A stretch of 64,000 nt of DNA from assembly GCA_046290225.1 (NCBI GenBank), contig JBKAGE010000047.1, positions 27,006-91,005 of the forward strand. The letters run 5' to 3'. How positions within the stretch are numbered: the stretch's first letter is position 1; every line of letters begins with the position of its first letter. Origin of the DNA: Bradymonadia bacterium. Its GTDB lineage: Bacteria > Myxococcota_A > Bradymonadia > UBA7976 > UBA1532. Positions 77 to 3,565 of the stretch are shown here, piece after piece. The translations under genes and the position numbers were made by a program. The notes below the pieces were generated by a model, which saw nothing but the letters and a program-made list of their open reading frames with translations, did no database searches and was not told where the DNA came from.

Positions 77-174
77 GGTGTCTTCGTTATCGCTGTATGG
101 GGGGTGAAGGGGGCCGCTGTCGATGTGCTCGCAGAGGCCACGCCTGGGGCCCCAGGCTGGTCAAAACAGTCGTC

Positions 175-208
175 GCCCAAGTGATTTGAGGCGGCTCAAA
201 TCATGGGC
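175..208. promoter_or_regulatory. Inverted repeat in the divergent ffh / DUF262 intergenic region (candidate operator or hairpin)
   Basis: TGATTTGAG-GCGG-CTCAAATCA (182-203), a perfect 9-bp arm, extended by GCCCA/TGGGC. A perfect 16-bp palindrome GCCTGGGGCCCCAGGC also lies at 142-157. Confidence 0.45.
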
Positions 209-284
209 AAAATCCGTTGGACTCTAGGGATCGCACAGGGCATTGTCAATCGGTTGAACGGCCAGCTCAGCAGGAGGGCAGACA

Positions 285-1889
285 TTGAGCGAACCGCAAA
301 AGAGCGCTCGACCAGAGGCTCGCAGCCTCACGGTCGAGGCCATGCTTCGCGAGATTCAGAGTGGTCGCTTCCGAGTGCCTCACTTCCAGCGGGCCTTCAA
401 GTGGAAGTCCACCCATATATGCAACCTCTTTGACAGCCTCTATCAGGGGTATCCGATCGGCAGCCTCCTCGTCTCGGAAGACACAGGCGCTGCTGAAGTG
501 CGCGCCTTTGGCCCTGTCACAGTGGAGAGCTCTGAGCGGCACGATGCCTGGTTCATCGTCGATGGTCAGCAAAGAGTCGTCTCCATCGCGGGCGCGCTGC
601 TGCATCCGGACGATCACCCTCGAGGTGACGTACACGCGATCTGGTTCGACCTCGAAACAGAGACCTTTCACCGCCTGAGCAGGCGCGAACCCCCGCCCAC
701 TTGGGTACCACTCAACGCAGCCCGAAGCTTCGAGAGCATGCTCAGGTGGCTCACCAGTTGGCCGCTCAAAAGCACACGACCTGAGCTGGTCTCGAAAGCT
801 CAAACCCTCGTCAGCCGACTCTTGGGCTACACGATCCCGATCTATGTGTTGCGCAACGCTGACCGGCAGACTTTGGTCAGGGTGTTCGAGCGCATCAACA
901 CGTTTGGTGTGGCCATGCGGCGCGATGAGGTCTTCGATGCGCTCAACAGCAGAGGTCAAATACGCCCCATCGAAGACATGGGGCGCAGGCTTGAGCGAGA
1001 GGGTTTCGGGGCCATCAACCCAGGCTGGCTCGAGCAAATCGCTCAGGCGGTCATCCGTGCCGAGCCCACGGCGGCGTCTGATCATGGGCGCGCAGTGGCG
1101 CTCGCCGAGCCCGCCATCAGACGTACGCTGACCTTTCTCAGGGAGGACGCGTGCATTCCTCACGTCAAGCTCTTGCCCCACAAGTTGCCTTTCATTGTGC
1201 TGCCTGGCTTCTTCCTCAAGCACCCACACCCCACACCACGTGTCCGCACACTGCTGACGTGGTGGCTCTGGCGGGGCACCTTGAGCGACGCACACAGTCG
1301 CCCCAACAACACCGAACTCAGGCGCCTGTGGGACGCAATCGACGAAGATCAGGCGGCGTCTGCCCAGCGTATATTCGAAAGCACTCAACAGAGCTGGACT
1401 GAGGTATCGCTCACCCCACAGCTTGAGAGCCCTTGGAATGCAGGGCACGCCACGAGCAAGCACATCGCCGCAGCCATCGTCGCCGCCAGCCCCCTCCATC
1501 CCTCGACAGGCGCGCCCATCTGGCCCGATGAGGAGGCTTTGGGTGATCCCAGCAAGCTATTTCTGTCGCCCTTTGGGCGAGGCGGCCCCATCAGCAGCCG
1601 CTTTTTGTTGACTGATCCAGAGGGACTTCCACTCACAGCCGGGCAACAACAAGCAGCCTTCGAGACGCTGTATGAGGCATCAGCTTCCATCAAGGCGAGT
1701 CACGGCCTCGATGAGGCGTTCGTACGCGCCATCAGGGCAGGCGACGACTCGACAGCAACGCAAATACGCCACCAAAACCTCGCCCCGATGTTACGCACTC
1801 AGTTCGAATGGCTGACTGGCTTCGGGCGAAGCACACGGCCGGCGGTCAACTCCATCATCGAGCGCGCCCACAAGGTGATGGCTTCGTGA
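285..1889 (+). CDS. DUF262 (GmrSD/SspE N-terminal, ParB-like) domain protein
   Basis: Motifs VPHFQRAFKW, LFDSLYQGYPIGSLL, VDGQQR and FERINTFG. TTG start with AGGAGG about 7 nt upstream. No intact HNH motif recognised in the C-terminal half. Confidence 0.88.
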   Translation: MSEPQKSARPEARSLTVEAMLREIQSGRFRVPHFQRAFKWKSTHICNLFDSLYQGYPIGSLLVSEDTGAAEVRAFGPVTVESSERHDAWFIVDGQQRVVSIAGALLHPDDHPRGDVHAIWFDLETETFHRLSRREPPPTWVPLNAARSFESMLRWLTSWPLKSTRPELVSKAQTLVSRLLGYTIPIYVLRNADRQTLVRVFERINTFGVAMRRDEVFDALNSRGQIRPIEDMGRRLEREGFGAINPGWLEQIAQAVIRAEPTAASDHGRAVALAEPAIRRTLTFLREDACIPHVKLLPHKLPFIVLPGFFLKHPHPTPRVRTLLTWWLWRGTLSDAHSRPNNTELRRLWDAIDEDQAASAQRIFESTQQSWTEVSLTPQLESPWNAGHATSKHIAAAIVAASPLHPSTGAPIWPDEEALGDPSKLFLSPFGRGGPISSRFLLTDPEGLPLTAGQQQAAFETLYEASASIKASHGLDEAFVRAIRAGDDSTATQIRHQNLAPMLRTQFEWLTGFGRSTRPAVNSIIERAHKVMAS

Positions 1890-3082
1890 CCGAAGCACGC
1901 GCCGTCACAGTCCGTCTATATGGTTCGCCTGTCGGTCATCTGGAGGCCCTGGGTGATGCCGCCGAGACATACAGGTTCGAGTTCGCCCCAGAGTGGCTCT
2001 CTCGACCTGACCGCCCAGTCTTGGGTCAGCAATTCGAAGACCGCCAGCCTGGCCCTCTGATTTTTACCAATGGTGGCCTGCCGCTCTGGTTTAGGGGGCT
2101 CCTGCCCCAAGGGCGGCTGTTGCGTATGCTCAGCCGGCGCTGGGGGCTCGACCCTGACGATCACCTCGATTTGCTCATCGCCCTGGGCGCAGATCTGCCA
2201 GGTGCAGTGACCATCAACCAAACCTCTCGGCGACACAGCGCCACTGACATCAGCCCCGCTCCGACCTCCCACCCTGCCGACGCGACAGACCTTCAACTCT
2301 CGTTCAGCCTCACGGGCGCGCAGTGGAAGCTCTCGGTCAAACCCGGAGAGCGAGGCCTCATCGTGCCTGTACGCGGTGAGTCTGGAGACTGGATCGCGAA
2401 GCTGCACGACCCAGAATATCCGGGCCTACCCCATGTGGAGTTCAACACGGCATGTTGGGCACGCGCCGCTGGCGTACACACCCCAATGTTCAGGATGGGG
2501 CACGTGGATGAGTTTGCCCACCCTCTCCCAGTGGAGATCCCCACTGGGGATGGGCACCTTTTTTTGAGTCGTCGCTTCGACCGCAACCCGGTCTGTCATA
2601 TGGAAGATTTCGCTCAGATCCTCGATCGCCCAGATCAGCAACGAGGCATCAGCGAGGACGTCGCGGCGATCCTTGCGTTGATTTGCCCCGAAGATCTGCG
2701 CGCATTTGTCGAACGCCTCGTGTTCTGTGTGCTGAGCGGCAACGGAGACGCACACCTCAAGAACTGGTCTCTTACCTACCCGGATCGCCTCAACGGACGC
2801 CTCAGCCCAGCGTATGATCTGGTCTCTACGGTGCTTTTCTTACCCAATGACAACCTCACCTTACCCATCGGGGGGCACCGGGCGTTTGACCACATTGATC
2901 ATCACGCCTTTGAGCCGCTCGCCCGGGTCACCCGACATGACTTTGCCGAGATCGGTCAGTGGGTGCGCGAAGCCGCCCAACGGGTGAGAGCGGCATGGCT
3001 CGCCGAGGGTGGCTTTGACTTTACCGCGTCTCAAAAGAAGTCTCTTGAGGCCCACATGGCCCGTGTCCCGTTGGTTGGTTGA
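1886..3082 (+). CDS. hipA: HipA-family Ser/Thr kinase toxin (HipA N-terminal coupling domain + HipA_C)
   Basis: Motifs SLTGAQWK (P-loop), WIAK, RRFDR, HMEDFAQIL, GNGDAHLKNWS and LSPAYDLV; N-domain VGHL...FRGLLPQG...GADLPGAV. GTG at 1886 overlaps the upstream TGA (GTGA). Confidence 0.92.
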   Translation: MTEARAVTVRLYGSPVGHLEALGDAAETYRFEFAPEWLSRPDRPVLGQQFEDRQPGPLIFTNGGLPLWFRGLLPQGRLLRMLSRRWGLDPDDHLDLLIALGADLPGAVTINQTSRRHSATDISPAPTSHPADATDLQLSFSLTGAQWKLSVKPGERGLIVPVRGESGDWIAKLHDPEYPGLPHVEFNTACWARAAGVHTPMFRMGHVDEFAHPLPVEIPTGDGHLFLSRRFDRNPVCHMEDFAQILDRPDQQRGISEDVAAILALICPEDLRAFVERLVFCVLSGNGDAHLKNWSLTYPDRLNGRLSPAYDLVSTVLFLPNDNLTLPIGGHRAFDHIDHHAFEPLARVTRHDFAEIGQWVREAAQRVRAAWLAEGGFDFTASQKKSLEAHMARVPLVG

Positions 3083-3173: not shown

Positions 3174-3565
3174 ATGAGTGAGCCAGATACGCTCGTTGGT
3201 CGGTGGGTGCTGTTCCCGTGGTTCGAAGAGCACGGCGAGGCACACTTTCACCGGATGATGTAAACATCGCCAAAGAGATACGGCCATACGGGAAGCTCTT
3301 CTTCGTCGCGCATCGAGATGGGAATTACCTGAGCGCCAAGTGGGGCGATCTGACCATTCGGCTCACCCCGTCGCTCGCCAAGCGTGTAGACCAGCCCTTC
3401 CATGCCATAGGCAGCACGCTCACTCTTCAAGATGGCCGCTCAGCCAAGGTGCTTGAGGTTCAATGGCACCATGGCCGTGCGGAGCCTTTCTATATGCTCG
3501 AGGTCGAGGGCAAGAAAAAATCTAAACGATATTGGTCTTCGGACATACGCGAGCAAACCTGTTGA
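3174..3565 (+). pseudogene. Frameshifted small protein gene (resembles, from memory, the DUF6960-like family); true pseudogene or sequencing indel
   Basis: Frame A from ATG 3174 gives MSEPDTLVGRWVLFPWFEEHGEAHFH and stops at 3263. Frame B continues PDDVNIAKEIRPYGKLF...WH...GKKKSKRY. One extra C at 3251 joins them as FHPDD. Confidence 0.65.

Follow-up and report, generated by a model that had tools for sequence, protein, structure and literature searches.

A 64,000-nucleotide stretch of DNA from a Bradymonadia bacterium (GenBank assembly GCA_046290225.1, contig JBKAGE010000047.1, positions 27,006 to 91,005 of the forward strand; hereafter the window) carries, at its positions 285 to 3,082, a two-gene unit in which a DUF262 protein (gene 1) is followed by a HipA-family kinase (gene 2). 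This DUF262-HipA pair is genuine and widespread, and apparently an undescribed variant of the HipA toxin-antitoxin systems, with a partner derived from a restriction enzyme. The reading favoured here, with a probability of about 0.55, is that of a HipBA-like two-protein toxin-antitoxin whose HipB has given way to a disarmed GmrSD/BrxU-type enzyme acting as a nucleoside triphosphate (NTP)-gated switch; that the two products form a physically coupled toxin and regulator is probable.

The pairing is a conserved module, encountered far beyond chance. By using a search profile made from the alignment of the 13 closest gene-1 proteins, the best 80 of at least 253 confirmed genome matches and the best 80 of at least 236 metagenome matches were assessed, of which 5 genome loci and 11 metagenome loci were set aside for having less than 600 bp downstream. 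A HipA gene lies directly downstream of gene 1 in 74 of the 75 assessable genome loci (Actinomycetota 37, Myxococcota 17, Pseudomonadota 10, Acidobacteriota 7, Planctomycetota 2, Thermomicrobiota 1) and in 54 of the 69 metagenome loci, so that the neighbourhood survey suggested by the original prediction bore out a DUF262 gene upstream of HipA across genomes. Among the 15 metagenome misses, eight are near-identical copies of one locus (the L084 group) and in two others gene 1 is broken, while HipA is fragmented in some of the counted loci (L112, L160, L166, L170). In the reverse direction, 201 genomes of the phylum were searched with a profile built from 84 partner kinases, and the 21 matches of at least 339 bits were taken, one further match being left out; 18 of them, the window copy included, follow a DUF262 gene, two follow a helix-turn-helix (HTH) gene and one is N-terminally truncated. 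At weaker scores, seven HipA matches follow HTH-like open reading frames (ORFs), as judged by eye.

The absence of a HipB-type gene on either side, claimed at the outset for the window, extends to the family: no HTH ORF is present between ffh and the gene downstream of the unit on inspection of the window ORF lists, and none of the 148 genes closest to homologous pairs (75 upstream, 73 downstream) was found to be of the HTH_3 (HipB) type. A conserved third gene was considered as well, and none recurs around the pairs. The coordinates of the GTGA overlap that couples the two genes in the window were confirmed; of 106 full-length pairs, 32 share this -4 overlap and at least 91 overlap or are separated by no more than 4 bp, with script-assigned starts. 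That the two genes are chance neighbours, or two independent genes of an island, would agree with the mobility of both gene types and with the variable spot beside ffh in which they lie here, but this explanation is refuted by the linkage in 74/75 and 18/21 cases across six phyla, by the coupled frames and by the predicted interface described below, and is hardly credible. The partner profile gathers, at E <1e-30, 1,667 clusters at 50% identity, a figure that counts in the sister clade PDC-M55C, and intact copies of the pair are present in cultured strains, among them Azospirillum sp. B510 (AZL_RS27965/AZL_RS27960), A. argentinense (D3093_RS34150/34145), Myxococcus sp. Y35 (L119) and Sorangium So ce1099 (L168). 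Matches in the ESM Atlas belong to DUF262/GmrSD clusters only. No fusion of gene 1 with HipA was found among proteins of 1,044-2,980 aa, all of them longer than the approximately 930-1,040 aa to be expected of such a fusion. A related protein, P0351, joins PLD, SNF2 helicase and DUF262 parts in one chain of 1,405 aa.

The features of the unit and its surroundings are the following, in window positions:

285..1889, plus strand: gene 1, a GmrSD/BrxU-like protein of 534 aa that appears nuclease-dead, the proposed antitoxin and sensor (Pfam GmrSD_N, AlphaFold2 model, hhalign)
339..941, plus strand: DUF262/ParB-Srx NTPase domain of gene 1, residues 19-219 (Pfam and invariance over 84 rows)
1425..1814, plus strand: degenerate DUF1524/HNH-like domain of gene 1, about residues 381-510 (motif absent, 0/84)
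1797..1880, plus strand: C-terminal helix and tail of gene 1, residues 505-532, the predicted HipA-binding element (predicted-complex interface, conservation)
1886..1889, plus strand: GTGA stop/start overlap, translational coupling (ORF coordinates)
1886..3082, plus strand: gene 2, a full-length HipA-family Ser/Thr kinase of 398 aa, the proposed toxin (Pfam, alignment, AlphaFold2 model)
2012..2041, plus strand: HipA N-subdomain motif R-P-V-L-G-Q-x-F-E-D of gene 2, residues 43-52, part of the predicted interface (complex contacts 39-56, conservation)
77..284, no strand: intergenic region common to gene 1 and the divergent ffh (promoter and inverted-repeat scan)

Gene 1, which starts with TTG in the window ORF list, matches Pfam GmrSD_N (formerly DUF262) over residues 19-219 (E 2.9e-22), and the QR, DGQQR and FxxIN motifs ascribed to it are found as Q35-R36, D93-G-Q-Q-R97 and F201-E-R-I-N205. 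Across the 84 HipA-linked partners, S51 (in LFDS; the counterpart of BrxU S42), D93-G-Q-Q-R97 and R203-x-N205 are invariant. The likeness reaches well beyond this domain: a linker and a DUF1524-like C-terminal domain were detected by structure and profile alignment, the AlphaFold2 model (confidence score pLDDT 85.5) aligns with BrxU (7p9k) over 456 residues (Z 15.3, root-mean-square deviation 9.8; gene 1 10-516 over BrxU 1-583), and the gene 1 profile aligns by hhalign with HNH-intact GmrSD-like relatives over 503 columns at probability 100. Pfam GmrSD_C itself matches none of the 84 partner-family members. The GmrD-type C-terminal half without an intact HNH, as originally described, was recognised in the whole family, since an intact HNH catalytic motif (D/E-H-x-x-P...N...N) is found in 0/84, the aligned positions being degenerate. 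The E-x-H-H-x-F-P...N...N motif of the relatives occurs in none of the 84 HipA partners and in 44 of 62 more distant matches, which is the fair figure, the count of 27/30 for relative set A5 being circular because A5 was chosen by motif. In the degenerate domain, E-x-H-H-x-F-P and the second Asn are gone and the scaffold elements 'ANR', 'SH' and 'F..R..L' are retained. Judged from these alignments, gene 1 is a complete GmrSD/BrxU scaffold with a putatively dead nuclease domain. According to the consulted parts of PMC8565348, S42 of BrxU governs a nucleotide-driven dimer-to-monomer switch, Q101 and R102 serve hydrolysis, D474 and H475 serve cutting, and HNH mutants retain NTP hydrolysis. Because the HNH motif is lost, the NTP-site residues are invariant and BrxU HNH mutants still hydrolyse NTP, gene 1 is best read as a BrxU-like switch without the blade.

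Gene 2, with a GTG start in the window ORF list, is the full-length HipA kinase with intact motifs that had been proposed. Pfam matches Couple_hipA at residues 8-110 (E 9e-19) and HipA_C at 140-371 (E 3e-37); the motifs are S141-L-T-G-A-Q-W-K148, K172, E185, G285-N-G-D288-A-H-L-K-N293 and Y310-D311, and D288 and D311 align with D309 and D332 of E. coli HipA. Its AlphaFold2 model (pLDDT 89.6) matches the HipA structures 2wiu and 4pu3 with TM-scores of 0.72-0.73 (E ~6e-18). Gene 2 lacks the K-Y found in 62 of 84 family members, the loop concerned being about three residues shorter than in its closest relatives.

The complex prediction suggested for the pair returned predicted binding. With ESMFold2, gene 1 and HipA reached an interface score (ipSAE) of 0.89, against 0.00 for the best of three controls; in a benchmark whose counts are roughly valid with custom alignments, 116 of 157 solved complexes and 2 of 215 mismatched pairs score as high as that. 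The runs agreed on at least 96% of contacts, with a partner pLDDT of at least 80. The tail of gene 1 is predicted to dock on HipA: residues 505-532 and 317-322 would contact HipA 39-56, 245-266, 302-304 and 344-348, mainly through a 'D-R-P-x-L' tail held between the N-subdomain motif (39-56) and C-lobe helices. In the family, the tail follows the pattern W-x-x-x-D-R-P-x-[LI]-x-x-L, then acidic residues, and extends at least 15 residues past residue 510 in 82 of 84 partners, while the alignment of HNH-intact relatives ends at about residue 510. On the side of the kinase, L46 (100%), G47 (95%), F50 (99%) and E51 (87%) of the N-subdomain are conserved, and the L-G-Q-x-F-E of DUF262-linked kinases sits where HipB-linked kinases mostly carry L-S-L-S; a loose LSLS-type pattern is present in 17 of 24 HTH-linked kinases vs 3 of 59 DUF262-linked ones.

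By analogy, the gene 1 tail recalls the HipA-binding tail of HipB. HipBs of sister kinases end in E-R-P-L-Y (64/120 homologs), R-P-A-Y-x-L or P-W-x-x-L-L with acidic residues, and the tail of S. oneidensis HipB binds a pocket of HipA (PMC4150777, in the part consulted). Among the loci inspected, those on plasmids of Alphaproteobacteria (L242-L246, L253; e.g. L242:918-1508) have in the HipB position antitoxins of about 180-200 aa, made up of HTH_3, a helical domain with an R-x4-H pattern and an R-P-A-Y-x-L acidic tail, possibly another undescribed type of HipA partner. Their helical domain, which we take to be HEPN-like, has no Pfam match at E 1e-6.

How such a partner came to replace HipB can be followed in the trees. 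In a quick tree of 83 kinases, comprising about half of the 84 partner kinases and extra loci, 59 DUF262-linked kinases fall on one branch (SH-aLRT 86) nested among HTH-linked kinases, and partner changes number 2 vs about 21 in shuffles. The nesting among HipB-linked kinases therefore points to an antitoxin swap, and a single replacement of HipB that kept the tail-type docking site is inferred. In the tree of gene 1 (63 rows), the HipA partners form a clade with a support of 100, whose sister is the HNH-less PDC-M55C, and both are nested in HNH-intact GmrSD; from this topology it follows that the nuclease died first and that the scaffold was later wired to two different outputs. Partner and kinase distance matrices correlate with a rho of 0.52, vs at most 0.18 in 500 shuffles. 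One member of the HipA-partner clade, L012/L291 (G015:C11), has no HipA, carries a different tail and lies downstream of a PDC-M55A-like ATPase, and may represent an intermediate or a switch back. The module would illustrate how a restriction enzyme can turn first into a disarmed sensor and then into an antitoxin.

As to the biological purpose, the context of the copies gives a divided answer. The check for defence-island context, also suggested originally, was borne out in part: in L166, and in L127, whose island is also that of L033, the pair is embedded in DISARM in the gap from drmMI to drmA, yet such copies are a minority and most neighbours are ordinary. In L103, gene 1 occupies the drmMI-drmA gap without HipA and with HEC-01, and other copies have DruE-like (L185), DrmD-like (L100) or methylase (L032) genes as neighbours. 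The drmMI-drmA gap appears as a cargo hotspot in its own right, holding HEC-01A/B in L103 (L103:8066-9936) and PDC-S48 in L127 (L127:4225-5424). Payne et al., in the text consulted, hold that one embedded instance warrants testing and treat embedding as a sign of defence. Since a few copies are embedded in DISARM and the neighbours are mostly ordinary, a role in phage defence is plausible, and no more. A plain addiction or stress toxin-antitoxin without an anti-phage role, with the DUF262 protein as a constitutive antitoxin whose NTP site is there for stability, for DNA binding or for an autoregulation that replaces the HTH, is a less likely but serious contender. It would account for the mostly housekeeping neighbours, for the patchy distribution (any match in 10 of 27 family genomes), for two copies on Azospirillum plasmids, one of them beside conjugation and recombinase genes, and for the 10 HipA loci of IMG/VR, none of which has DUF262 beside it; gene 1 itself had no match in viral contigs. 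It sits less well with the cost of a 530-aa antitoxin with invariant NTP-switch residues, with a sister clade that belongs to the candidate defence system PDC-M55 and with the copies embedded in DISARM.

Under the favoured reading, in which a disarmed GmrSD/BrxU-type enzyme takes the place of HipB, docking of the gene 1 tail would keep the HipA kinase quiet, while the DUF262 domain would still bind and hydrolyse NTP and alter its shape or oligomeric state as BrxU does; the antitoxin would then act as a switch and not as a DNA-binding repressor. HipA would be freed or activated by a cue, for which foreign or modified DNA lodged in the dead nuclease cleft, or NTP running low during infection, is the likeliest candidate. 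Known HipAs phosphorylate tRNA synthetases (Gerdes et al., in the text consulted), and by analogy the freed kinase would phosphorylate a translation factor, probably an aminoacyl-tRNA synthetase, and stop growth. For the whole scheme, including a trigger linked to phage or mobile genetic elements, the odds are about even. The more specific picture is tentative, at somewhat below even odds: a dead restriction enzyme with NTP switch, DNA cleft and HipB-type tail would be a pattern-sensing antitoxin, letting go of a kinase that arrests translation once it detects modified phage DNA or a drain on NTP. Such an antitoxin bears a mutable enzyme active site, which makes the trigger of HipA activation directly testable.

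Several points weigh against this reading. The evidence is wholly computational. The reverse-test profile was itself built from DUF262-linked kinases, and the window copies of both genes sit on long branches and deviate at several conserved positions. The likeness of the tail to HipB amounts to about three residues seen by eye, and the tail is not unique to HipA partners, as an acidic extension ends two of three ATPase-linked PDC-M55C proteins (the third, L290, is without it). The complex was folded 1:1 with custom alignments, while BrxU is a dimer. The HipA branch has a support of just SH-aLRT 86 and holds one long-branch HTH-linked kinase (L251), and co-transfer by itself could yield the correlation of distances. 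Regarding context, metabolic or housekeeping genes make up most of the 148 nearest neighbours, and the PADLOC context scan covered 121 proteins hand-picked partly for their defence-like looks and therefore shows no enrichment. Finally, inhibition is not evident from the model because the predicted interface leaves out the catalytic loop (D288) and the P-loop; HipB too binds HipA away from the active site (Gerdes et al., in the text consulted).

This avoidance of the active site is what would be expected if the DUF262 protein were a sensor and activator that switches HipA on when triggered, the kinase being otherwise silenced by autophosphorylation at S141 or by its own N-subdomain, and the sister DUF262 clade of PDC-M55, with its ATPase and further protein, has the sensor/transducer/effector layout proposed for Menshen (PMC12065111, in the text consulted). 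Harmless lone kinases should in that case persist, yet the orphans seen are gene 1 and not HipA: several lineages carry gene 1 with no HipA, its tail in many cases eroded, and a full-length orphan kinase of the DUF262-linked clade was not present among the 21 reverse-test matches. Gene 1 moreover stands in the HipB position with a HipB-like tail, and activation is unlikely. The survival of lone gene 1 with an often eroded tail fits an antitoxin role. It also argues against reversed roles, as an uncontrolled effector would hardly survive without HipA. Under that explanation the DUF262 protein would dephosphorylate the HipA target, use ATP locally, or be the effector itself, through NTP depletion or ParB/Srx-type nicking, under control by HipA phosphorylation. 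Its catalytic residues are indeed invariant, Machnicka et al. suggest a possible nuclease activity of GmrS, linked to its NTPase (PMC4619093, in the part consulted), and the persistence of NTP hydrolysis in the BrxU HNH mutants points the same way, but the predicted contact is made by the tail and not by the DUF262 domain, and enzymatic neutralisation or reversed roles are very improbable.

Turning to the surroundings in the window, the unit lies beside ffh as had been noted: ffh is on the minus strand, starts at position 76 and diverges from gene 1 across 208 bp. A functional tie was considered and rejected, as 27 family genomes are without DUF262 or HipA upstream of ffh (24 with at least 1.4 kb), and the location is incidental. 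In about 11 of the 27 family genomes (L256-L282) a divergent DnaK-like gene was seen by eye upstream of ffh, the source genome and others having unrelated genes. One sigma-70-like site of the region 77-284, at 249-221 on the minus strand, is oriented toward ffh; of 109 inverted repeats, the 25 longest include no operator-like one in this region. The G+C content at third codon positions (GC3) of gene 1 is 0.71 (33rd percentile) and that of gene 2 is 0.67 (17th percentile), both inside the genome range, which therefore gives no evidence of recent transfer. In low-depth contigs of near-identical strains, 6 of 10 coding changes are synonymous, numbers too small to weigh. Among the sequencing runs listed as containing the sequence, none is of RNA.

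Downstream of the unit, a small gene at 3174-3565 (plus strand; GC3 low, at 0.59) is seemingly split over two frames near 3250-3262 and has no Pfam match. Contigs of sequencing runs X1 and X4 match the window to 3149 and then diverge, and because they continue differently the small gene looks strain-variable and outside the module. Elsewhere in the source genome, the other HipA-family kinase (L006, G000:C35:108979 region; 465 aa, divergent) has by eye a small HTH-like ORF downstream, a reversed gene order, and a 157-aa second fragment of gene 1's DUF262 family (L003, G000:C52:74964-75377) follows a helicase-like gene near a contig end.

A description of the DUF262-HipA pair was not found in the literature searched, a set from which most subscription papers, DefenseFinder and the supplementary tables of Payne et al. 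fall outside. In the consulted texts, HipA is not mentioned in the Menshen paper, in the GmrSD phylogenomics (PMC4619093 and five supplement text files), in the BREX survey or in the main text of Payne et al.; 'Hip' and 'kinase' have 0 occurrences in the consulted text of the Menshen paper (PMC12065111), and in PMC11980606 HipA occurs only among the references. DUF262 is absent from six supplement text files of PMC8262856, from which genus names are absent too, the kinase table perhaps being elsewhere. The check with PADLOC likewise matched no named system: gene 2 has no matching HipA model, just weak PDC-M03A matches, and PDC-M55C, a sister protein that works with an ATPase, is the closest model for gene 1.

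Compared with HipBA (E. coli K-12; S. oneidensis MR-1), the unit shares a full-length HipA with its N-subdomain and four kinase motifs (Gly-rich loop, catalytic and Mg-binding present), an upstream, coupled partner gene and a partner tail that is predicted to dock on the kinase. It differs in that the partner is a 534-aa GmrSD-like NTPase vs an Xre-HTH HipB of about 90 aa, and in having no adjacent Xre-HTH gene, in the window or next to homologous pairs. With HipBST it shares a HipA-family kinase, HipT chains matching the kinase core with scores close to those of HipA, whereas the HipS-like part is here fused in gene 2 (Couple_hipA 8-110) and neither a separate hipS nor hipB is present. Gerdes et al. 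(2021) distinguish ten Hip gene organisations, in a text whose consulted part is without 'DUF', 'ParB' or 'restriction', so that the module adds a Hip partner class not named there.

With GmrSD and BrxU the partner has in common the complete domain layout (456 residues align with 7p9k), the serine of LFDS and the DGQQR motif, but it has lost the HNH motif needed for cutting (D474/H475 in BrxU), has gained a C-terminal tail and is nearly always followed by hipA. PDC-M55, a PADLOC candidate (Payne et al. 2024), comes closest on the side of gene 1, as PDC-M55C is its best PADLOC match (E 1.7e-49), its sister clade and likewise HNH-less; that system, however, combines an ATPase (A) and B with DUF262 (C) and has no HipA, and its A and B genes are absent from the window unit. 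Membership in PDC-M55 was rejected: in a genome with both, the true M55C scores 731 bits, vs 119 and 80 for the HipA-linked gene. The PDC-M55 layout was seen in L290:4046-10093 (G235:C23), L292 and L293 as an ATPase, a protein of about 330 aa and an HNH-less GmrSD-like protein, Menshen-like in its order; as judged by eye, it is preceded in L290 by a GmrSD-like gene that has an EH-x-x-P motif, and a BREX PglW-like gene is nearby. Menshen (NsnABC) and ptuXYZ, in the sources as consulted, also employ an HNH-less DUF262 protein as the proposed sensor for a separate effector, but they depend on an ABC-type ATPase together with an RNase or nuclease (PIN/BECR) effector, neither of which recurs around the two-gene kinase unit, and NsnA is shorter (profile of 385 positions). 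If the scheme proposed here is true, the pair would be a widespread anti-phage system that fuses restriction and toxin-antitoxin logic, and in PDC-M55 this dead scaffold would be coupled to an ATPase-effector pair instead.

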